This document shows positions 3 to 64,000 of a stretch of 64,000 bases of DNA, in pieces. The notes beneath the pieces were generated by a model that had not been told where the DNA came from, searched no databases, and worked only from the letters and a program-made list of their open reading frames with translations. Both the position numbers and the translations under genes were made by a program. Where the stretch lies: the IMG/VR virus record IMGVR_UViG_3300009514_000374, positions 32,001 to 96,000 of that record; one strand, 5' to 3'. Numbering within the stretch: position 1 is the stretch's first letter; every line of letters begins with the position of its first letter. The stretch is from a virus.

Positions 3-884
3 GGTTTCAACGCGCCGTGGCTCACGAAAAACAAGAACCCGCGAGGTCAAGCATGGGCCGGGGGCTCGTTCAAGACAGCGGTGCGTATCACCGTTGAGAT
101 CCCCAACAGCGACCCCAAGCTCAAGCACTGGCCTGAGCTTGCAGCCGAAAAGAACGTCTCGGACTCGTGGTTCCTGGCGCTCGACAAGGCGGGTGGCGGT
201 GGCTCGGACGACTGGTACATCTACATGGGCTCGATCCCCGTGAGCCGGATCAAAGAGGTCGAGGTCAACGGAAAGACGGTGAAGGTCGGGAAAGCGGTGG
301 GCTTCCATGGATGGAAGATGTCACCAGAGTCGATGCGCTTGCCCGGCCCACAATTCACCGACAAGAAACCGATCCCGGCCGAGGACATCGAGGAAGCCGT
401 TGAGTATCTGGACGAGGTAAAGCCCGGTGTGCTCGTCGGCTACAGTCGCGGCGGTGCCATCACCATGCTCGCGCTACGCAAGCACCGGGGCGCCAAACCC
501 AAGGTGATCTACGTGGCGCCGGCTTGGCTCCGAGGGTGGGCTCATGCTCAGCCACCGCACACCCAAGGCGTGATCCTCCACGGGGACAAGGACAAGCACG
601 TTCCCCTGGAGCACTCCTGTGAGCTTGCCAAGGACACGGGGATGCCGCTTCGCGTCGTGGAGGACAGGAACCACATCACGATCCTCAAGGACAAGCTCAA
701 CCCGAATGCAGGCAAGCCCGTGCCGCGCTCGATGTTGGACGACTGTGTGAACAAGTTGCCTGATTGGGGCACGAGCGGCGTGGGCACCCCTGAGCAGGTG
801 AAGCAGCAACAGGAATTCGCAGACCGCCTTGGGATGGCGGTCAAAGTAGCCGCCCGCTATCTCAACGGGGGCTCTCGCCGGTAG
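3..884 (+). CDS. 5'-truncated fusion: possible ADP-ribosyltransferase-like domain + alpha/beta hydrolase + C-terminal KVAARYL tag
   Basis: Frame is open from nt 3 (GFNAPWLTKN...). Nucleophile elbow GYSRGG, HGDKD Asp and a later His (RNH) fit an alpha/beta hydrolase. WLT...WYIYMGSIP in the N-terminal part resembles ART-like folds (weak). Confidence 0.7.
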   Translation, partial: GFNAPWLTKNKNPRGQAWAGGSFKTAVRITVEIPNSDPKLKHWPELAAEKNVSDSWFLALDKAGGGGSDDWYIYMGSIPVSRIKEVEVNGKTVKVGKAVGFHGWKMSPESMRLPGPQFTDKKPIPAEDIEEAVEYLDEVKPGVLVGYSRGGAITMLALRKHRGAKPKVIYVAPAWLRGWAHAQPPHTQGVILHGDKDKHVPLEHSCELAKDTGMPLRVVEDRNHITILKDKLNPNAGKPVPRSMLDDCVNKLPDWGTSGVGTPEQVKQQQEFADRLGMAVKVAARYLNGGSRR

Positions 885-939
885 GTACCGATTGGCGGGT
901 CGATGGCGATACTCCGAACCTTCCCCGTGAACGCGGAGC

Positions 940-1431: not shown

Positions 1432-1630
1432 GCGGAACGCACAGGCCATGAAGCCCGTTCTGGAGCGTCGGCACGCCGCGAGCCAGCGAGCTATCCTACT
1501 GCGGCTCCAAGCCGCTCTGGAGGCCGGTGAGGACGTTGAGGCGGCTGTCACGGAGGCTGCGTCGGACGTGTACTGGCAAGGCGTGAAGGACGGGCTCGAT
1601 TTGACCCTCCCGAACCCCGACGCGGCCTGA
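1394..1630 (+). CDS. small hypothetical protein
   Basis: AGGAG upstream; overlaps the previous ORF end. Confidence 0.55.
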   Translation: MSKKRNPDPTMFERNAQAMKPVLERRHAASQRAILLRLQAALEAGEDVEAAVTEAASDVYWQGVKDGLDLTLPNPDAA

Positions 1631-1686
1631 TTCGCCCACGTTTTTCGGCCTATGCGCCCCCTAGGAATAGGGAGTCCTACGCGCGC

Positions 1687-2544: not shown

Positions 2545-3139
2545 AGCAGCTAAAGCCGATTTGGTGCCACAGAGGCAACCTTCCCAATTTTCGTGCATGA
2601 CAACATCCATGCAGATGTGTCTGCTCGCGCTCGGAATTCCTGCCGCAGAAGCGACGTATGAATTGGTCAACAAGGTCATGGGCGCCAAGCCGATGAATGG
2701 CGCGACGTGGGAGGATGCCGCCGCATGTGCTCAGCACTACGGGTGCCGTGCCACGTTGGTCGTACCCTCGACCATTCGTCAGATGAAGGAGTGGACTGAC
2801 GCCGGGACGCCCGTGATGATCGCGTGGAACCCCGAGGGCCGCGACTGGTCGCACGCCTCCGTCGTGTTCCACGTTGACGACGACCTCACCGTTCACGTCG
2901 CCGACCCGAATATCCCAGACCCCGACGAGACCGTGCGGGTCGTACCCAAAAGCGAATTCTATTCCAAGTGGTCCGAAAAATGGCCTCGCTACCTTGTGCG
3001 TCGCCCGGCGATGGCGATCGAGCGCGAGATCAGTGATGGCAAACAGGTCATGGCAAGCATGGCCCGTACCGCTTCGACCCGTTCCGTGGGGGCCACGATC
3101 GTAGCTGCCCGCTTCCGAGCCAGACAGGAGAAACCATGA
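2537..3139 (+). CDS. C39-like (papain-fold) cysteine peptidase with C-terminal IVAARF tag
   Basis: Q-x5-C (QPSQFSC), SHASVV His, VADP Asp. Confidence 0.75.
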   Translation: MRKAAKADLVPQRQPSQFSCMTTSMQMCLLALGIPAAEATYELVNKVMGAKPMNGATWEDAAACAQHYGCRATLVVPSTIRQMKEWTDAGTPVMIAWNPEGRDWSHASVVFHVDDDLTVHVADPNIPDPDETVRVVPKSEFYSKWSEKWPRYLVRRPAMAIEREISDGKQVMASMARTASTRSVGATIVAARFRARQEKP

Positions 3140-7076: not shown

Positions 7077-8372
7077 ATGAGCGCCTACCTCACAAGCCTT
7101 TTTCGCCGGGCCTCCAAGACCCCTGTGACGGAGCCCTCCCACCTACGGGTGGCAGGACGCTACCTACGGGCCTATCTGAGCCCGAAAACAGACCTCTTGG
7201 CCCGCGTCCAGATGCTTGAGGGTGCGGCAGACGTGCCCCGAGGGGCTTGGACACGGCGGCTCGTACCGGCCGAGGCCAAGGACTATTTCGGGGAGGGCCT
7301 GGCCCCGGAGTGGACGCTTCGATCCGATTCAGGGCTCGCCAATGCAGCCGTCGAGGCAGTCAAAAAGAACATCGGTGAGCACGGCACTCCGGGTGTGATC
7401 CGATCCAAGCTCCGCGATATGTCGGCCGACGAGATGGTGAATTCGTTTATTGGGGGGTTGTGGCCTTGGCCCGCCCCCTCGTACTACGAGTGCCTCCAGT
7501 GTGGCAAGCGGTCCAAGAAGGACATTTCTAAGTGCCCCAAGTGCGGGGGAGAGGTTGAGCCGAGGGGTGCTGAGCACTCGATTATGAAGGCACCGCCCTT
7601 CTACGCCATCGGACAGAAGATGGACGAGCCGACCATCGAGGGTTTGCGTGACGGCTCGATCAAACCTGACCGCTTCACCCCCATTGTGTACTCGTGGGTG
7701 CAGCAACGTGCTCGTGACGAGCTACGCAAGTGGATGCGCGCTGTGGGCCGGGGCAGGGGACATGAGACTGAGTGGCTCCCCTCGGGAACCTCGCGCTTTG
7801 ACGTGATGGAAACCGACGCTGAACCCACCAGCGTTCTGTCTCGGATTCTCGGGATGAAGCACAACCCCAAGGCGAAGCGCCTGCGCAAGCTCTTGCGGGC
7901 CATCTCGGACGAGAACCCCCGCCGCGCCGATGCCGAGGTATTCAAGGAATTCCTGTCGATCATCGAGGGGATGTCGGCCGGGGAAACCTCCGTGGAATTC
8001 GGCCGGGTGGATGAACGCGGTATCCCGCGTGGGATTTCTGGAGTCATCGCCGAGCGCATGGGCAAGTCCCGGCAATTTGCTGGTCAGGCTCTCAAGCGGT
8101 CCTTTGAATTCTTGGCCGAGCGAGCCCAACGCAAACCGCAGCTAAAGCGTCTGTGGGAGGAAATCAGGGATGCCGAATTTGGAGCCGGGGAAATGGGTCG
8201 TTCCGCTTCGGCTACCGAGGAATTCCTGGCGGACCTCCAAGCATGTGGCGACGAGGTAATGGCTGCGTGCGACGCTGACGAGCACGAGGCTGATCGCACC
8301 GTCACTGTTGGACCTCTGGAGCTTACGATCGGGAAATTCCCCGGAGCGGGGTCGGGTGCCTACAGCAAGTAA
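7077..8372 (+). CDS. divergent sigma-factor-like protein with zinc ribbon and N-terminal RVAGRY tag
   Basis: CLQC...CPKC zinc ribbon; region-2-like FTPIVYSWVQQRARDELRK; HTH IAERMGKSRQFAGQALKR. Confidence 0.55.
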   Translation: MSAYLTSLFRRASKTPVTEPSHLRVAGRYLRAYLSPKTDLLARVQMLEGAADVPRGAWTRRLVPAEAKDYFGEGLAPEWTLRSDSGLANAAVEAVKKNIGEHGTPGVIRSKLRDMSADEMVNSFIGGLWPWPAPSYYECLQCGKRSKKDISKCPKCGGEVEPRGAEHSIMKAPPFYAIGQKMDEPTIEGLRDGSIKPDRFTPIVYSWVQQRARDELRKWMRAVGRGRGHETEWLPSGTSRFDVMETDAEPTSVLSRILGMKHNPKAKRLRKLLRAISDENPRRADAEVFKEFLSIIEGMSAGETSVEFGRVDERGIPRGISGVIAERMGKSRQFAGQALKRSFEFLAERAQRKPQLKRLWEEIRDAEFGAGEMGRSASATEEFLADLQACGDEVMAACDADEHEADRTVTVGPLELTIGKFPGAGSGAYSK

Positions 8373-8769
8373 ACCTTCGGCGCTTCGGGTTGCTCGGCTT
8401 TTCACAGCCCGTGCTGCCGAGGGCGACTGCTACGAGGCCGCCGCGAATTACATCGTGGAGCGCGGCCTTGGGCTATGGGGCGGCAAGGGCAAGCCCAAAT
8501 CAGGCTTGATTCTCGTCCATGGCGAGGTAGCGGGCCAAGGTCCGTTGGAGGGTGTCAATTTTGGGCACGCGTGGGTGCTCGACGGCAACACCGTGATCGA
8601 CAACTCCAATGGTCGGAACCTGCGGATGCCGAAATCCGCTTACTACGCGCTCGGCAAGATTGACGAGATCAACAATTTCCACGAGTACGATGTCGAGACG
8701 GCCCGACACATGCTGCTTCGGTTCAAGACCTACGGGCCGTGGGATCTGGAAACCTCGACAGGTCTGTGA
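8356..8769 (+). CDS. transglutaminase/papain-like Cys-His-Asp protein with RVARLF tag
   Basis: GDCYEAA, GHAWV, VID; GTG at 8356 with GGAG upstream. Confidence 0.65.
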   Translation: MPTASKPSALRVARLFTARAAEGDCYEAAANYIVERGLGLWGGKGKPKSGLILVHGEVAGQGPLEGVNFGHAWVLDGNTVIDNSNGRNLRMPKSAYYALGKIDEINNFHEYDVETARHMLLRFKTYGPWDLETSTGL

Positions 8770-9551
8770 TGCCGAAGATTCTTTTCACTGGACCCTCGCG
8801 TAAGCGGAAGCGGATCAAGCGGAAGCTGATCGAGGAAATGGAGCACCCGGAACTGCGGGTCGCGTCTCGATACCTCCAAGCGCGTGGGATGTACGACGAG
8901 GCGGAGCGGGAGCTTCGCAAGAAAGACCCGGATGGCTTCTGCATGGCGTTGCCGGGGACGGTCGTGTTTCAGCACTTGAATCTGAGCCCGCGCGGCAAGG
9001 TGATGAAGTGGTTTTCGATCCACGATCCCCCAACAGCCAGCGCCAAGGTCGTTGGGCACATCGCGGGGCTCGTGCAGACGAATGCCACGTTTGTCGTCGG
9101 GGAAGCCGGCTACAAGCAGGTGTCCGTGCTCGACAAGCCCAAGTTTGTGTTCGCCGGGGCGGTCGGAAAGCTCGTCGCCGTGGACGGTGCCGGCGGGGAT
9201 GAATTCGGAACCGTGCCCTCACGGGACCAGGAATGGATCCGATACAACCCCAAAAAGCGCGACGAAGGTCTGATCGCCCGATGGTTCTGCCGCCAGAATC
9301 CTGAGACTGGCGAATGGGACATCCCCGTGATCAAGGCACGTCGCGTGGTCGCACGAGGGCACAGGATCTACGCGAGCGGCATCACGGACATGCCCCGCAA
9401 ACACTACGAGCCGCTGCTTGAGCAGTTGGGGCTTGGCGCCTACCAGGCGGCCTCGATCAAACTGGCACACGAGGACAGCGAGCACGGGCCGCACATCCTC
9501 GCCATTCACCGAGAAGCCTTGCGTGCTCTCGATGGGGAACCAAACACATGA
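8769..9551 (+). CDS. hypothetical phage protein with RVASRY tag and degenerate IKLAH tag
   Basis: TGATG coupling; central domain with a YNP motif of phage-hypothetical type. Confidence 0.7.
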   Translation: MPKILFTGPSRKRKRIKRKLIEEMEHPELRVASRYLQARGMYDEAERELRKKDPDGFCMALPGTVVFQHLNLSPRGKVMKWFSIHDPPTASAKVVGHIAGLVQTNATFVVGEAGYKQVSVLDKPKFVFAGAVGKLVAVDGAGGDEFGTVPSRDQEWIRYNPKKRDEGLIARWFCRQNPETGEWDIPVIKARRVVARGHRIYASGITDMPRKHYEPLLEQLGLGAYQAASIKLAHEDSEHGPHILAIHREALRALDGEPNT

Positions 9552-10600
9552 GTCTCCGCAACAAAGCGATTAAGCTCGCCTACGAAAACCCCGAACTACG
9601 TGATGCGATCCTGCCGATCGTCACGGCCAAGGAGCACGCGACTGAGGACGCCCGCCGCAAGTACCTCCAAGAGCACCCCAAGGCTGATCCGGCGAAGCAC
9701 ACGATCAGGACCAAAAAGCCTCGCAAGAAAAAGGGGCCGTCTGAGAAGGACAAGGAAATCCTCAAGATCTTGGACGAGCACGACAAGGAGCAAGCCTTGC
9801 TCGCAGAAAAAGCCATCGCCGAAAGGGTGAAGGCTGAGCAGGCCAAATCGGACGAACGAGCCAAGGCTCGTGCGGAACGAGCCAAGGGGAAGGCGCCTCC
9901 GCATTTGGAGGGGCTGTCAAAGCACCTCCAAGACGCCGTGGGCAAGATGCCTACCAAGGGCATGGACAAGGAAGAAGCCTACAGCCACCCGAAGATCAAG
10001 GCGATGGCAAAGGCGCTGATGAAGCTCCCACGCGGAACCGTCGCTCGTATGTACGAGCAGCTACAAACTCGGATGCTTGAGCTTGGGCAGCCTGAGAAGC
10101 GCGGAGAACCGGGACGTGATGACGCCTTGAATCAGATTCATGCCGCGTGGCGTGCAACCAACGATGCCCTGTTCACGATGGGAGACGCACACAAGGAACG
10201 CGAAAAGGGCGAGGGCATGGGCAAATACCTTCCACGCGCTGAGTTGAAAAAGCGCCGCAAGGTTGAGCTAGATCTCGACCCCTTGAAAGACCTCCAGGGG
10301 CACAAGAAATCCGATCCGGTCTACAAGGTGCTCAAGGAGTACCGGAACGACGGAAAATACGTTCGGCTCAAGACGTTGGAGAAGGCGATCACGCATCTCG
10401 ACAAGATGCTCGACAACCCGGCTCACGACGGCGACGAGGACAAGATCGAGAAGGCCAAGAAGCTGCTTGAAAGGATCAATCGCGGAGGCCCCGAGTCTCG
10501 TCCGTCGAAAAAGGGCAGCCTTCGCAGCGGTCTGATCCGTCTGGCCCACGCTCGCCCTGACCTCCGTGATCGGCTGCTGCCTCTGCTCGCAAAGGACTAG
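9548..10600 (+). CDS. basic protein carrying LIRLAH-type tags at both termini
   Basis: MSLRNKAIKLAYENPELRDAILPI at the N-terminus and SLRSGLIRLAHARPDLRDRLLPLL at the C-terminus. Confidence 0.8.
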   Translation: MSLRNKAIKLAYENPELRDAILPIVTAKEHATEDARRKYLQEHPKADPAKHTIRTKKPRKKKGPSEKDKEILKILDEHDKEQALLAEKAIAERVKAEQAKSDERAKARAERAKGKAPPHLEGLSKHLQDAVGKMPTKGMDKEEAYSHPKIKAMAKALMKLPRGTVARMYEQLQTRMLELGQPEKRGEPGRDDALNQIHAAWRATNDALFTMGDAHKEREKGEGMGKYLPRAELKKRRKVELDLDPLKDLQGHKKSDPVYKVLKEYRNDGKYVRLKTLEKAITHLDKMLDNPAHDGDEDKIEKAKKLLERINRGGPESRPSKKGSLRSGLIRLAHARPDLRDRLLPLLAKD

Positions 10601-54642: not shown

Positions 54643-54987
54643 ATGCCGAAAGGACCGCAGACCGAGGAACGTGCTGAGCGTCAGGCGAGGGACCAGGAGA
54701 TCCGTCTTGCCGCGCAGGCACGGGAAAACATCGAGATGCACAAAGCGGCTGACGCGCATCTCGACGTGGCTGCGGCGGCGCTACGCAACGCCCTAAGATC
54801 GCTCCAGAACGTCCGTGTGGCGCGTCGTACTGCGGAAGGCCAGGTGCTCAAACGCAAGCTCAGGGCCGTTGAGCAGGCTGCTGCGGCTCTCAAGCCCATC
54901 GGAAGGGATGCTGGCCGGGTTCGGGCGACCGGGCCGGACTATTCCGACCCCGATTTGTCTATGGGAGGGCCAGGGGTGAATGGCTAA
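54643..54987 (+). CDS. hypothetical helical protein
   Basis: ORF overlapping the portal start. Confidence 0.6.
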   Translation: MPKGPQTEERAERQARDQEIRLAAQARENIEMHKAADAHLDVAAAALRNALRSLQNVRVARRTAEGQVLKRKLRAVEQAAAALKPIGRDAGRVRATGPDYSDPDLSMGGPGVNG

Positions 54988-56980
54988 GAAACGCCAAAAG
55001 CGGCGTCGAAAGACCGCTCCACGGCGCTATATCGCCGGATCGGGGGACATCCCCAAGAACGAGGACGCCCAAACGGTTGCCAGCGTGCCGGACAAGCATA
55101 AGCGGCCTCAGTTGTCGGTTGGCAAGCCGCAGCCGATCGTCCTTGGGTCGATGCGATCCAAGGTGGCGAATATCGGCGCAGGCGGATCGGGTTTCGGGGG
55201 CGGTGGGATCGGAGGACCCGGATCGGGTAACACGGGTGCTTTCGGATCCGGGCTTGGTTCGGTTGGCGGCTCGGCGATCGGAAGCGGCGGGAATTTCTAC
55301 TCGCCCGAGCTTTCGACCGATTTCCTTGAGCTACCGCAGAGCCTAGACGAGCAGCGTAACTACTTTCGGTTTTTCTACCGCGCTGACCCGTTCGTCGGGC
55401 AGGCGATGGACATTCACCGCGAGCTTCCGCTGTCGAAGATCCGGCTTGGTCGCCCCGAGGCCAAGGACAAGGATCTTGCTCAGCAGTCGCTCGATTTCTG
55501 CAAGCGGTGGACGAAGATCGTTGGGCTGCTCCAACGGCTGTCGGAAGGGCTGCACGAGTACAACGTCATTGGCGAAACGCACTGGTTCATCGAGGACGAC
55601 AACCCCGATATGCCGGAGGACGTTCGATACGAGATCAAGAACATTCTCCACGAGGATGGCAACTTGGAGGAGACCAAGGAGCTTTGGCCGGACGCGGACG
55701 AGCGCGCCTCCGCGTGGATGAAAAAGAACTACAAGGGGTGGACGCAGGTTCGCATCCTTCCGCCTGAGCAGATTCACATGGACTCGTTCCCGATGTCGGA
55801 CGAGATCCTGGTATCGCTCATTCCCGACTCCAAGACTAAGAGTGTGATCGAGCAGGCCGACCAGGGTGACCAGCGTGCGGTCAAGGTCATGGAGTCGATG
55901 CCGCCTGACATCGTGATGGCGGTGCGGCACGGCGAGAACGTCCCGCTCAATACGGACCCAGACGCAGGGTCGTTCTACTACTACATGGCGAACAAGGTGA
56001 GCCAGTACGAGCCGCGAGGGCACTCTCGGCTTGAACGGTGTATCCGTACCCTCGTCTACAAGGACAAGCTGCGCCAGGCGCAGACCTCCATCTCGTCGCG
56101 GCACATGACGCCTATCCGGCTCGTGTACGCCGAGAACATGAACGAAGCGGACACCGAGGCGCTGCGTGATCAGATCGACCTCGCGCTCCAAGACCCCGAC
56201 TACTCGATCGTCACCAACTTTCAGGTGACGTGGGAGGAAATGACGCCGCAAGGGCGTCTGCTGGAGCTTTCGTCCGAGTACGACCTGATCAACCGGGAGC
56301 TTTATGCGGGTCTTGGAGTGACAGAGAGCCTGCTCTCAGGTGAGTCGAGCTACAGCGGCGATCGGATCAACCTGGAGGTGATCAACGTCCGCTACATGCT
56401 CGTCCGTGAGTTCCTACAGGATTTCGTGGAGAAGAACCTGTTTGAGCCGATGTGTCGGCGCATGGGGTTCATCGAGACGGACGATTGGGGCAACGATGTC
56501 GTCGTTTGCCCGAAGCTCTCGTTCACGAGGCTGGCCCTCCGCGACAACCAGGACGTGTACGACGCCCTGTTCAACCTCTACCAGAAGGGCTCGTTGCCGA
56601 TTAGCGTGATCTACGACCTGCTCAACGTGGATGGGGAGGGTGCGACCGAGGAATTGCAACGCGATTTCGCCACGTTCAAGGACCCCACCTACAACGAGGT
56701 ACTGCGTGGCCTGTACTCGCAGGCGGGGACCAAGCTCGGCGACCAGTCGAATTTCGTGGAGAAGCAGGCCGAATACCTCGGACTGGACTACAAAGAGGAA
56801 GCCGAGGGGATGCAGCGGTTCGGATCGCAACAGGCGCCCTCGCAGCCCCAAGGTCAGCCCGCCGGGATGGACGTGTTGGCTTCTCTCGTGGCTGAGCGGA
56901 TCGCCGGCCAGGTCGCCGATTTGGTCGCCGACAAGATCGTGGAAAAGCTACAAAAGCGGTCTCCTGAGAGCACCGAGTAG
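54980..56980 (+). CDS. portal protein
   Basis: FY..DP.V..A.D, RG.S.L, LYAGLGV...L.G...YS, size and position after terL. Confidence 0.8.
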   Translation: MAKKRQKRRRKTAPRRYIAGSGDIPKNEDAQTVASVPDKHKRPQLSVGKPQPIVLGSMRSKVANIGAGGSGFGGGGIGGPGSGNTGAFGSGLGSVGGSAIGSGGNFYSPELSTDFLELPQSLDEQRNYFRFFYRADPFVGQAMDIHRELPLSKIRLGRPEAKDKDLAQQSLDFCKRWTKIVGLLQRLSEGLHEYNVIGETHWFIEDDNPDMPEDVRYEIKNILHEDGNLEETKELWPDADERASAWMKKNYKGWTQVRILPPEQIHMDSFPMSDEILVSLIPDSKTKSVIEQADQGDQRAVKVMESMPPDIVMAVRHGENVPLNTDPDAGSFYYYMANKVSQYEPRGHSRLERCIRTLVYKDKLRQAQTSISSRHMTPIRLVYAENMNEADTEALRDQIDLALQDPDYSIVTNFQVTWEEMTPQGRLLELSSEYDLINRELYAGLGVTESLLSGESSYSGDRINLEVINVRYMLVREFLQDFVEKNLFEPMCRRMGFIETDDWGNDVVVCPKLSFTRLALRDNQDVYDALFNLYQKGSLPISVIYDLLNVDGEGATEELQRDFATFKDPTYNEVLRGLYSQAGTKLGDQSNFVEKQAEYLGLDYKEEAEGMQRFGSQQAPSQPQGQPAGMDVLASLVAERIAGQVADLVADKIVEKLQKRSPESTE

Positions 56981-56996: not shown

Positions 56997-57008
56997 TATT
57001 CGGGCTAT
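56997..57008 (+). promoter_or_regulatory. candidate late promoter TA-N6-CTAT
   Basis: TATTCGGGCTAT 22 nt before ATG 57031. Confidence 0.5.
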
Positions 57009-57030
57009 GGGCGTGCCTCTAGCGAAGGCT

Positions 57031-60000
57031 ATGGCCCACAAGCCCACAAAGGCGCGGACAGCGTACACCGTCGAACCCACTGAGGGTGGCGTTGTGATCT
57101 GGCCCGAGAATCGGATCGAGCAGGCGTTTATCGACACGTTTGCCGCTCGGGTTGCGGGTCAGAGGCTTGGCGTGGCGAAGGGTCACAATATCGACCTGTC
57201 CGAAGATCCAATTCACCCGGACGAGGACGACGAGGACGAGTGGAAGGTGGACGAGGAACCGATGTCCATGGGGCATTCGGAGCTTCCCGGCGCCGAGGGC
57301 CGGACGGCGCGGGACTGGACCGCGCCAGGCAGAATCCTCGGCTTTAAGATCCGGTACGACGCCGAAAATGTAATGAGCCACCATCCCATCGTGATGGCCT
57401 TCGACGGGGAGACGGAGATTGGTTTCGTTGAGTTGGTCATGCTCGATGACCCTCCCTCTCATTGCGAGGACGAGTGGACTGAGGTTAGGGACGAGTTGGA
57501 ACGACGGGGTGCCCTTGGTGTCTACACCTACGCGGTAGTGGAGTCCTGGCTGGCGGACGAGTATCACCACAACCGTATCGGGGTGGGGATGTACGAGGCG
57601 GCGATGGCTGCTCTGTCAGACCCCCAGGAGCCAGTCATCCTGGTTGCGAGTCGGTGCAGAGGCGGCCCTACGAGCCATCAAGCGAGTCGTGTGTGGGAGT
57701 CCATGGCGCGTCGCTACGTGTCCTCGGGACAGGTTGTTTCGTCCGTTCCCAAGGCCAAAGCTCGGGTGGCGAATGTGGCTCGCCGCTTCATGGCGAAGGC
57801 GACGGGCACCCGTGCCGGCGACGGCTCCAGCGTGGGGTTGTTCATCCGCCTGCCGAAGCACCTGGCGACGCAATTCCCTGGCCTCGGAGAGAACGACTCG
57901 TCTCCAAGCCACGTCACGTTTCTCTACATCGGGGATTTCAAGGACAAGGACGAGCAGGCCCGGTTGGTCGTCACTCTGCGCGACATCCTTCGACGCTGGT
58001 GGCCCAAGTGTAAGGCAAGCCTCGGTGACCTGGAGTATTTCGACCACCCCGACAAGAACCGCCGCGTCCCGCATGTGTCCGTCGATTTCGACAAGGATCT
58101 GTCGGGGTTCAAGCAGCGGGTCATGCAGGAGCTTCGGGACGAGGGCTTTGAGGTCGGTGACAAGTTCCCCGAGTTCAAGCCACACGTCACGCTCGCGTAC
58201 ATGCCAGGCATGGACGGGGAGTGGGACAAGCCCGTGCCAGAAGGCTCGTGGGATGTCACTGAGATGGAGATATGGGGGATGCCCCGCGTACACACGATTC
58301 CAATTGGCAAAGCGTCGAGTCAACGAGTGGCTTCTTTGTGGCTTGAGGGGAGCACCCACGCGAAATCGGTTGCTTTGATGCGGTTCCTGTCCCGATTGGC
58401 TCAGCGTCTCGGGGTTGCCCGTCACACCTACGTCGTTGGCGGGGCCATTCGGAATTTCCTGATCGAGCAACCGATCAAGGACATCGACGTAGTGATCGAC
58501 TCGGTTGCTGCGGGCAAGGATTCCGAGTGGTTTGCCGAGCAGGTTGCGCGTGCCATTCCGGCGCCAACAAACCTGACGACGAACCAGTACGGCGTTGCCA
58601 TCCTGACCGTGAAGGGGGATTGGGATCTGGACGGCGAAAGCCTCAAGGGCGAGGTGATCGAAATCGCCAACGCTCGCAAGGAGAGCTACGGCGGTGCGGA
58701 GGGTAAGGGCTACAAACCACACATGGTTGAGCCGACAACCATTGACGAGGATGTCTACCGGCGCGAATTCACGTTCAACTGCATGGGAGGGGATACTCTG
58801 ATTCCCACCAAGCGGGGTATCCTTCGCATTGATGAGATCGCGTCTCGTGAGAACGGGGACCGGCAAGATATTCATTTGACAGTGGCGGGACAGGACGGTC
58901 CTTCGGAGGCTGTGGGATGGCAGTACAGCGGGTACGCGCCGACTCTGCGGGTGACCTCCGAGTGGGGACACACCTTCACCTGCACCCACCACCACCCCGT
59001 TCTGGTTCTGCGGGGGCATGACCATGAGTGGGTTCAGGCAGATCAGCTTGCAGAGGGCGACCTGCTTTGCGTGCCCGTGCGGCAGGTGTCGAGGCGAGAC
59101 CCTCTCGCTTTGGATTTGCCTGACCCGGTGCAGCCCAAGAGGGGCAGGCTCAAGGGTGCTCGGAAGCCTGAGATAATGACGCCGGAGTTGGCGTTTTTGA
59201 TCGGGTGTGTGGTGGCAGAGGGTTCCAACACCCACAAGCGGGTGTCTTTCAGTAACTCCGACCCCAATCTCATTTCCCGCTACGCCGAGTGCTTCCACGC
59301 CACTTTTGGATTTCTCCCCTCCCGTAATAAGGTGGTGAGCAAAGGCTCTGTCCGTGTCCTACGGGGGGTGGAATTTGTCGCCAACCATGACGGCTACGAC
59401 ATTTACGCCGACAGTAAAGCAGTGGTGGGCTGGTTGGAAGACCTCGGCTTGTACTGCGGAGGCTCCAAGGACGGGAAATCCGCTTCCCATCACAAGGTTG
59501 TTCCGTGGTCGATCCTACAAGCGGACGCGCGTAGCCAGTGGGCGTTTCTTGCGGCTTATCTTGAAGGGGACGGATCTATCCGGCCGGATACCGGGCGCAT
59601 CACATACTGTTCGGCCTCCCCGAAAGTGCGTCAACAGTTGCAGGTGCTCCTGGGAGCGCACGGCATCTTGAGCAAGGTGAAGGATAGGTTTGTCTACCTT
59701 AGCGCCGTGGATTCGGCTCTCTTGTGGGAGAAGGTTCGCCCGTGGATGGTTACCAAGGGGTTCGACTACACGCGAGACAGCAAGTCCCGTAACCGTTACG
59801 GAATTCCCGCAGATCACATCCGGGGGTTTCTTGCGGGCCGTAAACAAGCTCGTTCCGTGTACGCCACGGACGAGGGCGGGCTCCGGTCCCTTCCAGACGC
59901 TCACGAGCCTGTCCGTAAGGTTCAGCGGCTTCTACACGACGCCTACGCTCGGGGAGATTTCGACGGGCTCCTGTCGAGTCTCAAGATCATTAGCGGAGAC

Positions 60001-60888
60001 GAACACGCCAAGCTACAGCGGTTGTTTGACCTGGGCTACCAGTATGTCGAGGTTGCGTCAGTTGAAGATGCTGGAGATCAGGACGTATTCGACATTTCGA
60101 TGGGTGAGGGGGTAGAGCCCGCTTTTGTGGCGAACGGTGTGGTGGTTCACAACACGCTCATGTGGCGGTTGCTGGACCTGACCCACGGACCCGAGAAGGC
60201 CGAGGTAATCGACCTGACCGGCTGTGGTCGCCGGGATCTGGAGCAGGGCGTTCTCAAATGCCCGCGTGACCCCGACATCGTGTTCGCGGACGACGCGACT
60301 CGTATCCTTCGGGCGATCAAATTCACCGGCAAGTACGGATTCAAGATCCCGCCTGACCTGGCCGCCGCGATCAAGCGCAACGCTCCGAAGATGAAGCAGA
60401 TGCCCTACGAGGCGTTGAAAGACATCCTCGTGGATAACATCTTGCCCGAGCCGACCGCTCGCAAATCGCTCCAGCAGATGAAGGATCTCGGCATCCTCGA
60501 TGTGCTGCACGACATGATTCAGGAGCAGAAGCCGTTTGCTTCGGCCATCGCCAAGGTGCTCGGTCGGGAGCGTCGGGTTCAGGTTCTACTCGACTGGCTG
60601 CATCTTGGCCTGCCCGCCAAGACCCCGCTGCATTTCCTTGGGGCGCATGAGCGAGTCCGAGTCCGCGAGATCACGGTTCCGATGGACGAGGACAAGGCGA
60701 CTGATTGGATGCACCGGCTGATCAAGCCTCCGGTCAACAATAACGAGGTCATCGAAGCTCACTCGCTCGTTGGGCGGGACCGCGCGATGATCATGCCGCT
60801 TGCTCGCAAGCTGATTCTCGTAGACCCCGACCTCGCCTACGACGGCCGCGCCCTGACGCGCGAGGTGATTGAAAGGTGGGTGCGGTGA
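57031..60888 (+). CDS. polyprotein: GNAT-like + 2H phosphoesterase + CCA/poly(A)-type nucleotidyltransferase (intein-containing)
   Basis: GNAT-like ~57330-57745; HVTF/HVTL 2H motifs ~57830-58305; VGGAIRN, DID, EIA, RREFTFN|TL, DDATRILRA; alternative start 57007. Confidence 0.85.
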   Translation: MAHKPTKARTAYTVEPTEGGVVIWPENRIEQAFIDTFAARVAGQRLGVAKGHNIDLSEDPIHPDEDDEDEWKVDEEPMSMGHSELPGAEGRTARDWTAPGRILGFKIRYDAENVMSHHPIVMAFDGETEIGFVELVMLDDPPSHCEDEWTEVRDELERRGALGVYTYAVVESWLADEYHHNRIGVGMYEAAMAALSDPQEPVILVASRCRGGPTSHQASRVWESMARRYVSSGQVVSSVPKAKARVANVARRFMAKATGTRAGDGSSVGLFIRLPKHLATQFPGLGENDSSPSHVTFLYIGDFKDKDEQARLVVTLRDILRRWWPKCKASLGDLEYFDHPDKNRRVPHVSVDFDKDLSGFKQRVMQELRDEGFEVGDKFPEFKPHVTLAYMPGMDGEWDKPVPEGSWDVTEMEIWGMPRVHTIPIGKASSQRVASLWLEGSTHAKSVALMRFLSRLAQRLGVARHTYVVGGAIRNFLIEQPIKDIDVVIDSVAAGKDSEWFAEQVARAIPAPTNLTTNQYGVAILTVKGDWDLDGESLKGEVIEIANARKESYGGAEGKGYKPHMVEPTTIDEDVYRREFTFNCMGGDTLIPTKRGILRIDEIASRENGDRQDIHLTVAGQDGPSEAVGWQYSGYAPTLRVTSEWGHTFTCTHHHPVLVLRGHDHEWVQADQLAEGDLLCVPVRQVSRRDPLALDLPDPVQPKRGRLKGARKPEIMTPELAFLIGCVVAEGSNTHKRVSFSNSDPNLISRYAECFHATFGFLPSRNKVVSKGSVRVLRGVEFVANHDGYDIYADSKAVVGWLEDLGLYCGGSKDGKSASHHKVVPWSILQADARSQWAFLAAYLEGDGSIRPDTGRITYCSASPKVRQQLQVLLGAHGILSKVKDRFVYLSAVDSALLWEKVRPWMVTKGFDYTRDSKSRNRYGIPADHIRGFLAGRKQARSVYATDEGGLRSLPDAHEPVRKVQRLLHDAYARGDFDGLLSSLKIISGDEHAKLQRLFDLGYQYVEVASVEDAGDQDVFDISMGEGVEPAFVANGVVVHNTLMWRLLDLTHGPEKAEVIDLTGCGRRDLEQGVLKCPRDPDIVFADDATRILRAIKFTGKYGFKIPPDLAAAIKRNAPKMKQMPYEALKDILVDNILPEPTARKSLQQMKDLGILDVLHDMIQEQKPFASAIAKVLGRERRVQVLLDWLHLGLPAKTPLHFLGAHERVRVREITVPMDEDKATDWMHRLIKPPVNNNEVIEAHSLVGRDRAMIMPLARKLILVDPDLAYDGRALTREVIERWVR
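58780..60153 (+). mobile_element. 458-aa intein with LAGLIDADG homing endonuclease
   Basis: Starts CMGGDT; block B TCTHHHP; LIGCVVAEG and FLAAYLEGDG; block F VFDI; ends VVHN followed by Thr(+1). Confidence 0.92.
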
Positions 60889-61970
60889 AGCCATCGGCAA
60901 ACCGCGTCGCGTCGCTCCACCGCGCTGGCTATTTCAGCGTCGGCGACCTGATCTTGTTTGGAAAGTACAAGAACAAGAAGGGCAAGATCGTCGGGTTTGG
61001 CCGCACGGAAAAGAACGTGCCTACGGTCATTGTCGAACCCATCCCCAAGGGCCGCAAAAAGAACAAGGAGATCGGCCTGTTCAAGATCTGGCATGGCGTG
61101 CCTGAGAAGCGTGCGATGACGATGGAGGCTCGTGTAGCTCACCGCTATGCTTTTGAGCACCCAAGCGAGAAGGCTCGCCAGCAGTACCTCAAAGATCACC
61201 CCGGAGCCGATCCTAAGAAGCACCATGTCAAGGGGCCGTCGAAGCCGAGCAAGGTCAAGAGTCTCGTAGATCGGGCGCTCGCCAAGGTGAAGGGCGCGAA
61301 GGACCACATGGTCGCTGCGGTTCGTGCGGCCCCGGCCGAGGTTCACTCGTTCCTGTTCGACAAGGCCCATCGGAACAAGCGGACCAAGGAGCTTGCCGCG
61401 AAGCTCAAGGAGAACGCACCCAAGGCTAAGAAGGCTCTGTTCAGCGCCCTCAAGCGCGAGCTTTCGTCGTTCCCGAAAGCGGGGGCCATCCTCAAGCGGG
61501 TCGCAACGGGAGGCAAGCTCCAAAAGGGCGATGTCAAGACCCTCTATGGTGTCGGCGTCTACATCGCGGGCACTGTTCTTGGCGCGATGTCGGGAGGGGC
61601 TGCGGGCGCGGCTTTGTTTGGGGCCTCCAAGGCGCTCCTGCACAGCCTCAGTTTGCACGCTTCGATCAAGGCAGTCAGCCATCTCGCCGACGAGGGGTTC
61701 CTTGGCTACGAGGCGGTGGAGAGTGGCGCGATGGCGACGGGCCTGGCCGATGCGTTGCCGGTGAACACGAGTGACCTGCCTGGCTTGGGCAAGGTGTTTG
61801 ACGTGCTCAAAGAGGTGGTCACAGCAGCCGACGAGAAGGACGACGAATACCTGCGCAAGTTTGTTGAGGCCATGTACGACGACATTGTGAAGCAACTGGA
61901 GCAGGGCATCAGCGACGCTGACATTCGGGACGTTCTCGTTCACGGGGTTCAGCCAAAGGGGGCCGCATGA
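60885..61970 (+). CDS. tagged multidomain protein (SH3/KOW-like + hydrophobic Gly/Ala segment)
   Basis: RVASLH and RVAHRY tags; VGD.ILFGKYKNKKGKI; GVGVYIAGTVLGAMSGGAAGAALFG. Confidence 0.7.
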   Translation: MKPSANRVASLHRAGYFSVGDLILFGKYKNKKGKIVGFGRTEKNVPTVIVEPIPKGRKKNKEIGLFKIWHGVPEKRAMTMEARVAHRYAFEHPSEKARQQYLKDHPGADPKKHHVKGPSKPSKVKSLVDRALAKVKGAKDHMVAAVRAAPAEVHSFLFDKAHRNKRTKELAAKLKENAPKAKKALFSALKRELSSFPKAGAILKRVATGGKLQKGDVKTLYGVGVYIAGTVLGAMSGGAAGAALFGASKALLHSLSLHASIKAVSHLADEGFLGYEAVESGAMATGLADALPVNTSDLPGLGKVFDVLKEVVTAADEKDDEYLRKFVEAMYDDIVKQLEQGISDADIRDVLVHGVQPKGAA

Positions 61971-64000
61971 GCGCAGCACGCATCGCCGCCCTTCACATGG
62001 CGAAGGCCAGGTACAAGGACAAAAAGGTCGTCAAGGACTCGGACGGGAAGGATATGACCGTGTACGAGTACAGTGACCGCCAGGTTTCCAAGCGGAACAA
62101 CGACAAGGCCGATCGTGTGCAGAAGCTCCGGTCCCTTCGATCCGATCTCGTGAAGCGGGTCAAGAAGGACTACAAGGCCAAGGATCTCAAGACGCGGCTC
62201 ACGGCGTTGGCCGTGGGTTTGATCGACCATACCTACGAGCGTGTTGGCAACGACGAGAGTGCGGGCGAAGGCCACTTTGGCGTGACCGGCTGGCTCGTCA
62301 AGCATGTCTCGTTCTCGGGCGGCAAGGCGACGATCCGGTACGTCGGTAAGAGTGCAGTCAAGCAGACCAAGGTCGTGACTGATCCGGGGGCGGTCAAGCT
62401 GCTCAAAGAAGCGGTCAAGGGCAAGAGCCCCGGCGATCAGATCTTCACCTGCGACGACGCGGGCGAGAAGGTGTGCGTGACCTCGGCCGAGGTCAATGCC
62501 TACCTGCCGGAAGGGATCACGGCAAAGGATCTACGAGGGCTTCACGCGAACGAGGAAATGCTCGTCAAGCTCAAGGCGCAGCGTAAGGGTCCGCTCCCGA
62601 GTGACAAGAAAAAGCGCGAAAAGAAGCTCAAGGACGAATTCAAGCGGGCGCTGGAGGAAACGGCCAAGGTGGTCGGCCACGAGCCGAGCACGCTCCGTAG
62701 CCAGTACCTCGTCCCTGCGATGGAGGACGCCTACATGAAGGACGGCACGGTGATCGACAAGCTCAACGAAAAACGCTCGTCGCTGGAGGCCGCGTGGGAT
62801 CACTTGGCGACCAAGACGGACGAGGAAAAGAAGGACGAGGACGCTGATAAGAACGTCCGCAAGGACCCGAAAAAGAAGCCTCCGCGCTACGACCTCCGTG
62901 ACAACAAGATTCACGATCCTGATCTCAATGGGGATCCCGACATGAAGGACGAGGCCAAGGCCGACAAGGACCCTGATCTCTCCCTCAACTACAAGCGAGT
63001 TGCGCGACGGTTCTTTGCGCGCAAGACCTCACCTACGGAATCCGGCGCCAAGGCGCTGTGGGAGCGGCACAAGCAAAAGAGCCCCGGCACCAAGCTCAAT
63101 TGGCAGGATTTCTTTGAGCGCAAGGACAAGGGCACCATCCAAGAGGTTCGGGACGCGATCAAGCCCAAGGACAAGCCCAAAGACGAGCCCGCGAAGCCCA
63201 AGAAGCCCAAGGCCCCGGAGGACGAGGGCGAGGCTAAGGAGAAGCCCGAGGACGAGGACAAGGCCAAGAAGAAGCCCGCCGAAGGCGAGGCGCCCACTGA
63301 GGATCCGCAGGCTGAGCAAGCCGCCAAGGAGAAGGAGCACAAGGAGCGTGTTCAGAGTGCCGTGACCGATTCGGCGCAGGCATACGACTCCGTGTTCGGC
63401 GGAGGCCGTGTCCAGGTTCCCCGCGAGGTAAGCCGATACCTTCCCCAAGCCCTCTCCAACATGACGCCGGAGCAGGTCGAGAGTTTCAACCAGGCCACGC
63501 AACAGCGCGCTCAGGCGATGCAGAACGAGGGTTTGCGTGGTGAAAATGTGGTCGAACGGGCTGAACGGACGCTGGATGACTACAGCGACGAGCAGATCGA
63601 GAACATCTCTGATCCAGCACGGCTGGCACAGGTAGTTGCTGATCTTACGTTCTCCGAGCACGTCCTGTCCCTCGACAAGAAGCGGCAAAAAGGCGTGAAG
63701 CGGGCGCTTAGCAAAGCGTTCGACCAGATCGAGAAGCAGTTGCAAAAGGAAACCAAGGACGGGCGGTACCGCCTGCCTTCGGAAATTCGACGCACGATCT
63801 CAGACCAGATGGGGAGCTTGGAGCCCGATCAGATCCAACAGTTCGTCCAGGGCGTGACGGAAAACCTGGCGGACAATGCGACCAAGTACGACGACAGCGA
63901 TGAATCTGTCGAGCGCGCCCAAGGTGATCTTGAGGAATTCTCCGAGCTAATCGAGGGAGTTTCGGATCCGAATGTGATGGCGCAAGAGGTCGCTTCGCAG
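61967..64000 (+). CDS. topoisomerase IB catalytic domain fused to a long C-terminal region (3'-truncated; missing from the ORF track)
   Basis: ATG 61967, open to the window end; RVGN, GK, KDLR, GH, catalytic Tyr (SQYL, codon 62705-62707). Confidence 0.85.
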   Translation, partial: MSAARIAALHMAKARYKDKKVVKDSDGKDMTVYEYSDRQVSKRNNDKADRVQKLRSLRSDLVKRVKKDYKAKDLKTRLTALAVGLIDHTYERVGNDESAGEGHFGVTGWLVKHVSFSGGKATIRYVGKSAVKQTKVVTDPGAVKLLKEAVKGKSPGDQIFTCDDAGEKVCVTSAEVNAYLPEGITAKDLRGLHANEEMLVKLKAQRKGPLPSDKKKREKKLKDEFKRALEETAKVVGHEPSTLRSQYLVPAMEDAYMKDGTVIDKLNEKRSSLEAAWDHLATKTDEEKKDEDADKNVRKDPKKKPPRYDLRDNKIHDPDLNGDPDMKDEAKADKDPDLSLNYKRVARRFFARKTSPTESGAKALWERHKQKSPGTKLNWQDFFERKDKGTIQEVRDAIKPKDKPKDEPAKPKKPKAPEDEGEAKEKPEDEDKAKKKPAEGEAPTEDPQAEQAAKEKEHKERVQSAVTDSAQAYDSVFGGGRVQVPREVSRYLPQALSNMTPEQVESFNQATQQRAQAMQNEGLRGENVVERAERTLDDYSDEQIENISDPARLAQVVADLTFSEHVLSLDKKRQKGVKRALSKAFDQIEKQLQKETKDGRYRLPSEIRRTISDQMGSLEPDQIQQFVQGVTENLADNATKYDDSDESVERAQGDLEEFSELIEGVSDPNVMAQEVASQ

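Follow-up and report, generated by a model that had tools for sequence, protein, structure and literature searches.

Portable peptide tags on unrelated accessory proteins of an uncultured huge bacteriophage are candidate labels for loading into the phage head

Two recurrent peptides, here called tag 1 and tag 2, mark unrelated proteins encoded in a 64,000-nt stretch of DNA (the window), which is part of a 141-kb huge-phage fragment, about 30% complete, from an uncultured bacteriophage. The tags are clade-wide, selected as peptides, portable and carried on polyvalent-protein domains, they avoid replication genes, and both are conserved at the peptide level and not as DNA. An earlier note on this DNA had read them as address labels that package host-takeover enzymes. 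The recurrence itself proved real, by profile search for tag 1 and by shuffle test for tag 2. Labels that load enzymes into the phage head for injection with the DNA would be the best reading of the tags, one to which we give about an even chance. New here are a composite with a third motif (motif 3), a link to head genes, the passenger set, a junction motif and the conservation of the capsid protein.

Tag 1 is a 26-residue peptide with the consensus LRxxLIRLAHxxPELRxxLLPLL. A profile built from the copies detected six in-frame copies in four ORFs of the window, with per-copy E-values of 1e-13 to 1e-17; they are given below with the motif 3 that adjoins one of them.

9548..9640, + strand: tag 1, N-terminal copy in ORF 9548-10600, beginning at the initiator codon (M-S-L-R); profile match at ~1e-14
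9638..9712, + strand: motif 3 (ARxKYLxEHPxADPxxHxI/V), directly after tag 1 of ORF 9548-10600; motif-3 profile, 3e-14
10511..10597, + strand: tag 1, C-terminal copy in ORF 9548-10600, preceded by SKKG; profile match
42700..42792, + strand: tag 1, N-terminal copy in ORF 42700-43446; profile match
43000..43095, + strand: tag 1, internal copy in ORF 42700-43446, preceded by KPKKA; profile match
48898..48990, + strand: tag 1, N-terminal copy in the small ORF 48898-49227 (109 aa); profile match
51531..51626, + strand: tag 1, C-terminal copy in ORF 51099-51647, whose body is weakly YunG-like; profile match

Pfam found nothing on the body of ORF 48898-49227. In the 141-kb record as a whole there are 15 copies, spread over 9 ORFs; six related huge-phage records (G+C 42% to 64%) have 5-11 copies each, and the profile matched 3,827 protein-cluster representatives, all metagenomic, in which the tag lies at exact N-ends, at exact C-ends or between K/E-rich linkers. 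Because the copies vary freely at synonymous codon positions, it is the peptide that is under selection, not a DNA repeat. AlphaFold2 modelled each tag 1 as a helix-turn-helix (pLDDT >90) with a disordered linker between two copies. The tag is basic (three Arg plus Lys), often recurs 2-7 times within one protein and is flanked by charged disordered linkers; no solved structure matched its profile by sequence. Some carriers consist of tags only, for example a 115-aa protein of two tags and an acidic linker, and a structural or bridging function suits these better than that of a disposable address.

Tag 2 is a shorter basic helix that lies at protein ends or domain joints. Its strict form, R[VI]AxR[YF], occurs at 8 sites in called genes against 0.13 expected from shuffles, and a relaxed form at 17 sites against 3.4; a loose form counted in six frames gave 13 sites on the + strand and 1 on the - strand. 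Observed/expected values in six phage records were 11/1.2, 8/1.1, 5/1.9, 9/0.1, 6/2.9 and 14/1.0. The sites outside the head-gene proteins described further below, and those in ORF 60876-61970, are as follows.

843..860, + strand: tag 2 (KVAARY; strict/near-strict), 7 residues from the C-end of an alpha/beta hydrolase ending at 884
3065..3115, + strand: RTAS junction, then relaxed tag 2 (IVAARF; 3098-3115), at the C-end of the C39-like peptidase ORF 2537-3139
7146..7163, + strand: tag 2 (RVAGRY; strict/near-strict), residue 24 of ORF 7077-8372 (DUF7129 zinc ribbon)
8386..8403, + strand: relaxed tag 2 (RVARLF), near the N-end of ORF 8308-8769
8856..8873, + strand: tag 2 (RVASRY; strict/near-strict), residue 40 of ORF 8739-9551 (Phage_L5_gp82-like)
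10631..10648, + strand: tag 2 (RVARRH; strict/near-strict), residue 10 of ORF 10604-12988 (794 aa)
41993..42010, + strand: relaxed tag 2 (KVAADW), N-end of ORF 41951-42259
46292..46309, + strand: relaxed tag 2 (RLAERH), immediately ahead of the conserved domain in ORF 45686-46951
60903..60920, + strand: relaxed tag 2 (RVASLH), N-end of ORF 60876-61970
61131..61235, + strand: tag 2 (RVAHRY; 61131-61148), then motif 3 (61161-61235), in ORF 60876-61970

Relaxed sites recur in orthologues: those of the C39-like peptidase carry KVATRF (G001) and KVADLF (G002) just past the peptidase domain, and xVAxRW(L/V) stands at the same place in 5/5 orthologues of ORF 41951-42259. ORF 45686-46951 has a probable internal start at 46268. 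The start codon of ORF 7077-8372 is preceded, at a distance of 18 nt, by a CTATAG. Motif 3, ARxKYLxEHPxADPxxH, comes after tag 1 or tag 2 interchangeably, head-cluster proteins included, and this is the sole basis for regarding the two tags as possibly one code.

The earlier figure of about 16 tagged proteins is fair only under the relaxed motif, by which 15-16 proteins in the window are tagged, compared with 10 by strict criteria. The earlier note's claim that the long tag is missing from the replication block was borne out and holds for both tags: neither kind occurs in frame within 17017-40860, and the sole match there is an off-frame 42-codon ORF at 21141 (E = 0.002). Pfam gave no family match over the tags, and PHROGs, searched with one tag carrier (window 61967-63997 left out), gave no family over the tag.

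Among the passengers named in that note, Pfam or PHROGs confirmed the alpha/beta hydrolase, C39-like peptidase, 2H phosphoesterase, CCA/poly(A)-type nucleotidyltransferase and topoisomerase IB; nothing at E <= 0.01-0.05 was obtained for the two transglutaminase-like enzymes, the GNAT or the sigma-like factor, and the HExxH protein rests on a single HESQH string at residue 514 of ORF 10604-12988. Carrier domains include ART-PolyVal, InPase, 2H, ParB-like, PARP, SAM lyase and TopoIB, a repertoire that matches the virion-delivered polyvalent proteins of the framework in PMC5512222, as far as its matched passages describe them. The tags are portable across phages, in that one passenger domain can be tagged at either end or inside a larger protein. 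The ART-PolyVal gene that stands alone and has tag 2 at its N-end corresponds to a domain of a G005 head-cluster polyprotein; the body of ORF 8308-8769 shares 45% identity with the C-terminal portion of the TopoIB head-cluster protein in G003; the CCA enzyme carries a tag where it is encoded inside the head cluster (G000, G005) and none where it is encoded elsewhere (G001, G002); and a unit of tag 1 plus domain, stand-alone in three phages, makes up the C-end of a 1238-aa protein here.

The head genes of the window and their polyvalent proteins are the following.

52344..54380, + strand: large terminase (PHROG 2, E = 1e-23)
54980..56980, + strand: portal protein (PHROG 16240, E = 1e-26)
57007..60888, + strand: polyvalent protein directly after the portal, with an N-region, 2H phosphoesterase and CCA/poly(A)-type nucleotidyltransferase
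57763-57789 and 58324-58341, + strand: tag-2-like helices (relaxed sites) in ORF 57007-60888
61967..64000, + strand: start of the topoisomerase-IB polyvalent protein (1322 aa)
61979-61996 (relaxed) and 62996-63013 (strict, RVARRF, past the TopoIB domain), + strand: tag 2 in the TopoIB polyvalent protein

The nucleotidyltransferase of ORF 57007-60888 is interrupted by an intein with LAGLIDADG. The portal is 53-60% identical in five relatives, and the TopoIB gene lies between portal and protease in 6/6 relatives. Tag 2 was enriched in this interval, with 12/53 sites against 2.75 expected (4-fold), a count to which G005 contributes 7/12 and in which sites within one polyprotein are not independent; tag 1 showed no positional enrichment, with 3/53 copies in the head cluster against 2.5 expected. 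The connection of tag 1 with the head is a weak one. Distances of 40-60 kb separate many tagged genes from the head genes. Small proteins with an N-terminal tag 1 do directly follow the portal in G001, G003 and G005, and one lies between the scaffold and capsid genes of LR745208.1. ORFs outside the interval had a homologue inside another phage's portal-to-protease interval in 2/18 cases for tag 2, 2/22 for tag 1 and 9/1,160 for untagged ORFs, an excess of about 13-16x (Fisher p = 0.011 for tag 2 and 0.016 for tag 1) in shuffling statistics that rest on small counts. The capsid protein has 91% identity across relatives (range 88-93%), with third codon positions only 46-60% identical, and the next most conserved protein reaches 58%. 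This conservation makes the capsid protein a candidate tag reader, while other causes of it are possible. The conserved capsid-facing C-terminal tail of the scaffold (LSKLWESAPDVSKVF) is unlike both tags, and the tag-2 profile did not match it.

A (K/R)xA junction was present near some tags, but the earlier statement that it is usually there was too strong: of 326 tag-1 copies taken from the whole family, roughly 30-40% have a K-x-A after them, and [KR]TA lies within 25-30 residues of 12/62 tag-2 sites (about 2.5 expected). [KR]TA[SG] exceeded shuffles 1.5-3.6-fold in 6/6 phages, modestly so in G002 and G004 (z about 2). Of the eight such sites in G000, three fall within the head protease and the scaffold, and their positions are conserved in 6/6 phages. 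In the ORF-45686 family the junction motif flanks the conserved core on both sides in 6/6 orthologues, the downstream element being as follows.

46907..46918, + strand: KTAS junction near the C-end of ORF 45686-46951; K[TR]A[SA] in 6/6 orthologues

Since [KR]TA[SG] occurs beside tags and also at conserved positions of protease and scaffold, it may be a cut site of the head protease.

The carriers could instead dock on a hub other than the capsid, such as an AAA+ unfoldase/chaperone of host or phage origin (with ClpX-type adaptor peptides), the polymerase, the ribosome or a multi-enzyme assembly in the cytoplasm; in that case the tags would control where accessory enzymes are located in the infected cell, their timing or their turnover. 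The tags do sit on flexible ends and linkers, as short docking motifs do, most tag-1 genes are far from head genes, and carriers composed solely of several tags point to the bridging of a multivalent partner. We nevertheless consider such a hub unlikely: it leaves unexplained both the concentration of tag 2 and passengers between portal and protease and the recurrence of the junction motif in protease and scaffold, and ClpX zinc finger, ClpP and tubulin were not found in five fragments (each 30-57% complete).

Even less probable, in our view, is that the tags have separate readers, tag 2 and the junction serving head loading and processing of polyvalent proteins, and tag 1 serving DNA binding or a self-association that builds an internal core or condensate. 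Strict tag 2 was found in 0/150 of the best tag-1 carriers, with no shared protein in the sets examined, head-interval enrichment is confined to tag 2, and the basic, multi-copy character of tag 1 between charged linkers would suit such roles. Against this, the same motif 3 follows both tags, carriers of both have head-cluster polyprotein homologues at similar rates, tag-1 genes occur inside the head clusters of four relatives, and AlphaFold2 shows no confident tag-tag packing (pTM 0.29). We give least credence to the motifs being conserved inter-domain linkers or processing elements of polyproteins without an address role, their terminal copies being leftovers of fission or fusion. Internal copies do lie at domain borders, and the same domain is fused or free depending on the phage, as with the tag 1 plus domain unit. 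Leftovers would decay, however, yet terminal tags persist in orthologues only 35-60% identical (ORF 41951 family in 6/6 phages, ORF 45686 family, C39-like peptidase), C-terminal tags 5-12 residues from the end separate nothing, and tag-only proteins exist.

Several known systems resemble the one proposed here. In T4, the capsid targeting sequence (CTS) marks internal proteins IPI-III and Alt and is removed by the prohead protease gp21 (PMC3012670, PMC9026906). Like the CTS, the tags are short portable peptides on unrelated, non-essential, host-directed proteins, including an ADP-ribosyltransferase, with a (here candidate) protease site adjoining and carrier genes scattered outside the head cluster. 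Unlike it, they lack a matching family annotation (Pfam; PHROGs on one carrier), lie also at C-ends and between domains, and comprise two alternative tags with a common motif 3, tag 1 being a two-helix unit that is often repeated; loading and cleavage are here predictions from sequence. In SPN3US (gp245) and phiKZ heads, many internal or ejection proteins have propeptides cut at one consensus motif that also serves self-cleavage of the protease (PMC10052503, PMC7411985), whereas the candidate motif here is not a Glu-type site and the propeptides would be short, shared and portable instead of long and protein-specific. The polyvalent proteins described for phages and conjugative elements by Iyer, Burroughs, Anand, de Souza and Aravind (2017, PMC5512222), in the passages matched, are likewise multi-domain effectors beside portal/terminase genes with predicted delivery with DNA, and the families ART-PolyVal, InPase, 2H and ParB-like nuclease are common to both; peptidases occur in both but differ in class (C39-like here, MPTases there). 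A term search of that source gave no 'linker', and among 12 of its 31 matched passages none describes a shared address or junction peptide, whereas here the same short peptides punctuate polyproteins and also label single-domain genes that stand alone at other places in the genome. Encapsulin cargo-loading peptides are also short terminal peptides on flexible linkers of unrelated enzymes, directed to the inner face of an HK97-fold shell; the present case concerns a tailed phage, which has a terminase, portal, scaffold and protease, its tags differ in sequence and are also internal, and docking is predicted from sequence. The phage P22 scaffolding protein has a coat-binding helix-turn-helix at its C-end. 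Tag 1, a predicted small basic helix-turn-helix, resembles it, and carriers built from two tags plus an acidic linker look like mini-scaffolds, although no solved structure matches the tag profile and the phage's own scaffold has a different conserved tail.

In the head-loading reading, tag 1 and tag 2 (a 7-10-residue basic helix, RVAxR(Y/F)L), optionally with motif 3, would be portable docking peptides on flexible ends and linkers of accessory enzymes, recruiting them to one common, highly conserved phage partner, most likely the interior of the head during assembly (capsid protein, scaffold core or portal). The head maturation protease would probably cut the tag from its passenger at the nearby [KR]-T-A-[S/G], as it would cut itself and the scaffold at such junctions. 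Host-modifying and counter-defence enzymes would then end up inside the head, to be delivered along with the DNA. The earlier note's reading of the tags is partly supported by the comparative evidence.

Unrelated proteins of this phage do share recurrent peptides, as the earlier note had observed. Tag 1, a 26-residue peptide (LRxxLIRLAHxxPELRxxLLPLL), was located by a regular-expression scan and then by a profile built from the copies, which gave six in-frame copies in four ORFs of the window and, for the record as a whole, 15 copies spread over nine ORFs (E-values per copy of 1e-13 to 1e-17). Synonymous positions vary freely among the DNA copies, indicating that the peptide is what is conserved and ruling out a DNA repeat or mobile element. 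N-terminal copies begin at the initiator (M-S-L-R), and a basic (G)KKA stretch precedes internal and C-terminal copies; the 150 best carriers held 116 N-terminal, 47 C-terminal and 184 internal copies. An AlphaFold2 model of a two-tag protein predicted each tag 1 to be a helix-turn-helix (helices 3-15/17-34 and 90-100/102-113, pLDDT >90) with a disordered linker. Tag-tag self-association was rejected on the same model, which had a pTM of 0.29 and no confident packing.

Tag 2, the shorter RVAxR(Y/F) helix, occurred eight times in called genes under the strict pattern R[VI]AxR[YF] compared to 0.13 expected, and 17 times under a relaxed pattern compared to 3.4 expected. Chance and composition were ruled out as the source of the tags by shuffles and by strand asymmetry. 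Tag-2 sites lie within about 40 residues of the N-terminus, 5-12 residues from the C-terminus, or between domains; the model of protein A4, which has tag 2 at both ends, was too poor for use (mean pLDDT 55). The earlier estimate of about 16 tagged proteins in the window was borne out when relaxed matches were counted (15-16), strict criteria giving ten. So was the absence of the long tag from the replication block: no tag of either kind was found in 17017-40860, which is 37% of the window (0.63^15, or about 0.001, if genes are independent).

The source record is 141,007 bp and was estimated by CheckV to be about 30% complete, which implies that it comes from a huge phage. The window has a G+C content of 60%, and the + strand carries nearly all genes. 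Its layout, from gene calls made with a simple GC3-based script (stop-to-stop ORFs were used for the relatives), is as follows.

Gene layout of the window and its downstream edge
window start to ~17 kb: accessory-gene island
17017-40860: replication block, with clamp loader, sigma-70 region 4 protein and phage metallopeptidase
41-52 kb: conserved genes, function unknown
52344-54380: large terminase
54980-56980: portal
57007-60888: 1293-aa protein, 2H phosphoesterase and intein-split CCA-type nucleotidyltransferase
60876-61970: 364-aa protein
from 61967: 1322-aa topoisomerase-IB protein
just past window end: head maturation protease, very acidic scaffold-like protein and 290-aa HK97-type major capsid protein

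Tag 1 was also carried, in 5-11 copies each, by five IMG/VR contigs (G001-G005; 148-257 kb, 45-57% complete, G+C 42-64%) and by the 485-kb GenBank record LR745208.1. These are true relatives, as shown by 44-60% identity in terminase, portal and protease and by a common gene order. The order terminase, portal, polyvalent genes, protease, scaffold, capsid protein was found in 7/7 records, all incomplete except one. In the present record the genes from portal to capsid protein span genome 86980-103007. Several other features of these loci were recorded. The intein, which has a LAGLIDADG homing endonuclease (Pfam Intein_splicing, LAGLIDADG_3), occupies window 58822-60153, residues 606-1049 of ORF 57007-60888, and interrupts the CCA/poly(A)-type nucleotidyltransferase. 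In G005, the ORFs for terminase and head protease are far longer (1078 and 1104 aa) and likely contain inteins as well, because the terminase ORF matched this intein segment. Directly 3' of the capsid gene is an 830-aa ORF (window-equivalent 71119-73611; 7119-9611 of the downstream segment L004) with HNH/LAGLIDADG endonuclease matches and a DNA methyltransferase-like region (PHROGs). The portal homologue of LR745208.1 (406124-407737, - strand) is reported with one in-frame TAG, which a split gene, an error or recoding could explain. Gene 49224-50519, just 5' of the terminase and flanked by two tag-1 genes, fuses a weakly matched ferritin/Dps-like N-terminal domain to DUF5661 and is itself untagged by the tag profiles.

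Neither tag occurs in the replication block, and of the two only tag 2 is concentrated among the head genes. Tag 2 was over-represented in every relative, most clearly in G003 (9 compared to 0.1 expected) and G005 (14 compared to 1.0). It was also enriched in the interval between portal and head protease (12/53 sites compared to 2.75 expected, binomial p = 1.4e-5), although seven of the 12 sites come from G005 and those in a single protein cannot be counted as independent. Tag 1 was not enriched in this interval (3/53 copies compared to 2.5 expected). In G001, G003 and G005 the gene directly after the portal encodes a small protein with tag 1 at its N-terminus, and in LR745208.1 such a gene lies between the scaffold and capsid genes.

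Tagged domains appear to have been shuffled among these phages. The present record encodes a stand-alone ART-PolyVal protein with tag 2 at residue 7. It shares 54% identity with the final domain of a head-cluster protein in G005 that also has 2H and PARP-like domains and tag 2 at residues 487 and 982. ORF 8308-8769, with tag 2 near its N-terminus, has its match in the C-terminal region of the TopoIB head protein of G003. The CCA enzyme bears tag-2-like helices in the head cluster of this record and G005, whereas in G001 and G002 it is untagged and encoded elsewhere on the other strand. The C-terminal domain of a 1238-aa three-tag protein exists in G001, G002 and G004 as a free protein consisting of an N-terminal tag 1 and that domain. 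When every ORF with homologues in other genomes was counted, 2/18 tag-2 ORFs (Fisher p 0.011 compared to untagged), 2/22 tag-1 ORFs (p 0.016) and 9/1,160 untagged ORFs had one within the interval of another phage, several of those nine having relaxed tags or being intein matches.

The enzymes that carry the tags are those of the polyvalent proteins of Iyer et al. 2017 (PMC5512222), where such proteins are predicted to travel in the virion. A Pfam scan of 86 tagged ORFs from six phages returned InPase (2), ART-PolyVal (2), TopoIB, HAD_SAK_1, WGR, SAM lyase, PARP, ParB-like nuclease, YunG and others, and no replication or shell proteins. Two families diagnostic of polyvalent proteins were present, ART-PolyVal (PF18760; E = 1.5e-10 and 1.3e-16) and InPase (PF18823; E = 3.9e-35). 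Polyvalent proteins join several unrelated effector domains in one polypeptide, as do ORF 57007-60888 (2H and CCA-type transferase), the 1238-aa protein (two DGHHRW, ParB-like segments) and the G005 head-cluster proteins (2H, PARP and ART-PolyVal; zinc ribbon and InPase), and their genes sit among portal and terminase head genes, a placement seen here in 7/7 records. A term search of PMC5512222 gave no match for 'linker', and none of 12 passages, out of 31 that matched, describes a shared address or junction peptide.

The (K/R)xA junction proposed in the earlier note is best defined as [KR]TA[SG]. This motif was 1.5-3.6-fold over shuffles in 6/6 phages (8 compared to 3.5 in this record, 31 compared to 8.7 in G005) and lay within 25-30 residues of 12/62 tag-2 sites compared to about 2.5 expected, often as KTAS-RVA. 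Among the eight sites of this record, one falls at residue 25 of the head protease, a position at which 6/6 phages conserve W..VR[TVI]A[SA]; two are in the scaffold, with SKTAS about 25 residues from the C-terminus in 5/6 phages and VRTAS in G005; and one lies just ahead of the tag of the C39-like peptidase. The others are in ORF 3136-4545 (two), at the C-terminus of ORF 45686-46951, and in the replication block. In 6/6 orthologues of the ORF 45686 family, [RK]TAG (KLAG in the copy of this record) precedes the conserved core and K[TR]A[SA] comes after it. T4 and giant-phage prohead proteases cut one common motif in the protease itself, the scaffold and internal proteins (PMC10052503; PMC3012670), and [KR]TA[SG] is a putative head-protease cut site here. 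A visual likeness of the scaffold tail to tag 2 (KTAS...VAxL..W) was not backed by the tag-2 profile. The 469-aa protein of window 3136-4545 combines its two junction sites with two K(K/T)AAR...GLYGYP copies and has no Pfam match.

A further motif, ARxKYLxEHPxADPxxHx(V/I) or motif 3, was found immediately after tag 1 in ORF 9548-10600, in a G005 protein beside the portal and, twice, in the 1238-aa protein. In ORF 60876-61970 and the G002 TopoIB protein it comes after tag 2 or a tag-2-like helix. Tags 1 and 2 thus fill one and the same position in a composite module, which is the best evidence that both may form one system. The 1238-aa protein, encoded 5' of the window (genome 28184-31900; 8184-11900 of segment L003), has two DGHHRW (ParB/sulfiredoxin-like) segments, each followed by tag 1 and motif 3, and a third tag 1 ahead of its C-terminal domain; only one DGHHRW segment gave a Pfam ParBc_2 match, and that was sub-threshold. 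The head-cluster protein 60876-61970 has an N-terminal tag-2-like helix, a lysine-rich region, and tag 2 with motif 3. Its Gly/Ala-rich hydrophobic stretch at about residues 225-260 resembles a membrane-inserting segment, and the protein may be an ejection protein.

The CTATAG palindrome was 2-14-fold rarer than random expectation in six records and was found 12-43 nt ahead of the start codon in several tagged genes (window 7053 and 46242, genome 12130, G001 152497, and six G005 sites), a placement suggesting that it may be a promoter element. The copy at 46242 is followed by an internal RBS and, at 46268, by an ATG from which the predicted 227-aa product matches 200-aa orthologues. A k-mer enrichment search for a shared late promoter in intergenic DNA yielded no clear motif.

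No match to a described family was found for the tags. Pfam gave nothing over the tags, a protein-atlas feature search gave no usable match, and the string 'LIRLAH' was not found in the literature. Searching GenBank phages with the two-tag protein (tblastn) gave no match, and a word-indexed homologue search gave only five, all without names; a later profile search found the 11 tag-1 copies of LR745208.1. Against 1.84 billion proteins, the tag-1 profile matched 3,827 cluster representatives at E <= 0.001 and 429 at E <= 1e-10. All carriers checked were unnamed metagenomic proteins, no cultured relative was found, and almost none of 131 carriers had a Pfam domain, the few matches being WGR, DUF7717, DUF2958, DUF7007 and pentapeptide repeats.

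The tags resemble known packaging systems in part. The T4 capsid targeting sequence is an N-terminal leader of about 10-20 residues, whereas the tags here are N-terminal, C-terminal and internal. The T4 sequence is removed by the prohead protease at an adjacent consensus; here [KR]TA[SG], near tags and in the protease and scaffold, would be the candidate for such a site. Tagged proteins of the T4 type are found in the virion, and their tag suffices to load a reporter. Encapsulin shell genes stand next to their cargo gene without portal, terminase or tail genes, while this phage has terminase, portal, protease, scaffold and tail-fibre-like genes. The coat-binding domain of the P22 scaffold is a helix-turn-helix, the shape AlphaFold2 predicts for tag 1, but the tag profile showed no relationship to a solved scaffold domain, matching only designed repeat proteins in the Protein Data Bank and none below E = 2.6.

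If the tags recruit enzymes into the head, the capsid protein is a candidate for the partner that reads them. It averages 91% identity to five relatives (range 88-93%; window-equivalent 70138-71010, L004:6138-7010) whose G+C ranges over 42-64% and whose remaining core proteins do not exceed 58% identity; the next most conserved are the C39-like peptidase (58%), a 219-aa protein of unknown function, the portal (58%) and the terminase (54%). At third codon positions, identity among the capsid genes drops to 46-60%, which points to unusually strong purifying selection and not to recent transfer. Contact with many invariant peptides would so constrain a protein, as would other causes. The C39-like peptidase, second in conservation and itself tagged, is an alternative candidate for the processing enzyme.

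Other explanations of the tags were weighed. They could dock their carriers on a hub other than the capsid, which would fit the lack of tag-1 enrichment in the interval but leave the concentration of tag 2 there unexplained. As a weak negative, a search for phage-nucleus or ClpXP readers found no tubulin, zf-C4_ClpX or ClpP in five phage fragments (30-57% complete), and a ClpX of the host might still serve as reader. The two tags could instead have different readers, as their differing enrichment in the interval might suggest; their shared slot ahead of motif 3 argues for one system. Finally, the tags could be mere linker or processing elements, consistent with internal copies at domain borders; against this, terminal tags persist beside varying flanks in orthologues of the C39-like peptidase, of the ORF 45686 family and, in 6/6 phages, of the ORF 41951 family.

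On balance, the earlier proposal that the tags load enzymes into the head for injection with the DNA held in part: the data argue for it moderately in the case of tag 2 and the junction, and weakly for tag 1. We regard the chances that the tags are head-loading signals as evenly balanced. A fuller scheme, possible though rather doubtful, would give this clade of huge phages a postal code, in which two interchangeable address modules (the 26-residue helix-turn-helix of tag 1 and the 7-residue basic helix of tag 2), motif 3 as an optional shared adaptor and a [KR]TA|[S/G] protease junction would specify which enzymes travel in the head and are set free in the next host, with the near-invariant capsid protein as reader, making the injected proteome predictable from sequence alone. 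To our knowledge, the proteins injected with phage DNA have been determined for no more than a few cultured phages, and sequence does not reveal them. Should the tags be head-loading signals, thousands of dark metagenomic proteins would become candidate injected effectors or counter-defence enzymes, tag 1 alone matching 3,827 cluster representatives, and the polyvalent-protein idea would gain a testable mechanism of address, junction and reader. Cargo might then also be loaded into phage-derived capsids with the tags as natural handles. A peptide so conserved on many unrelated proteins would, even with a reader other than the capsid, point to an undescribed hub in huge-phage infection.
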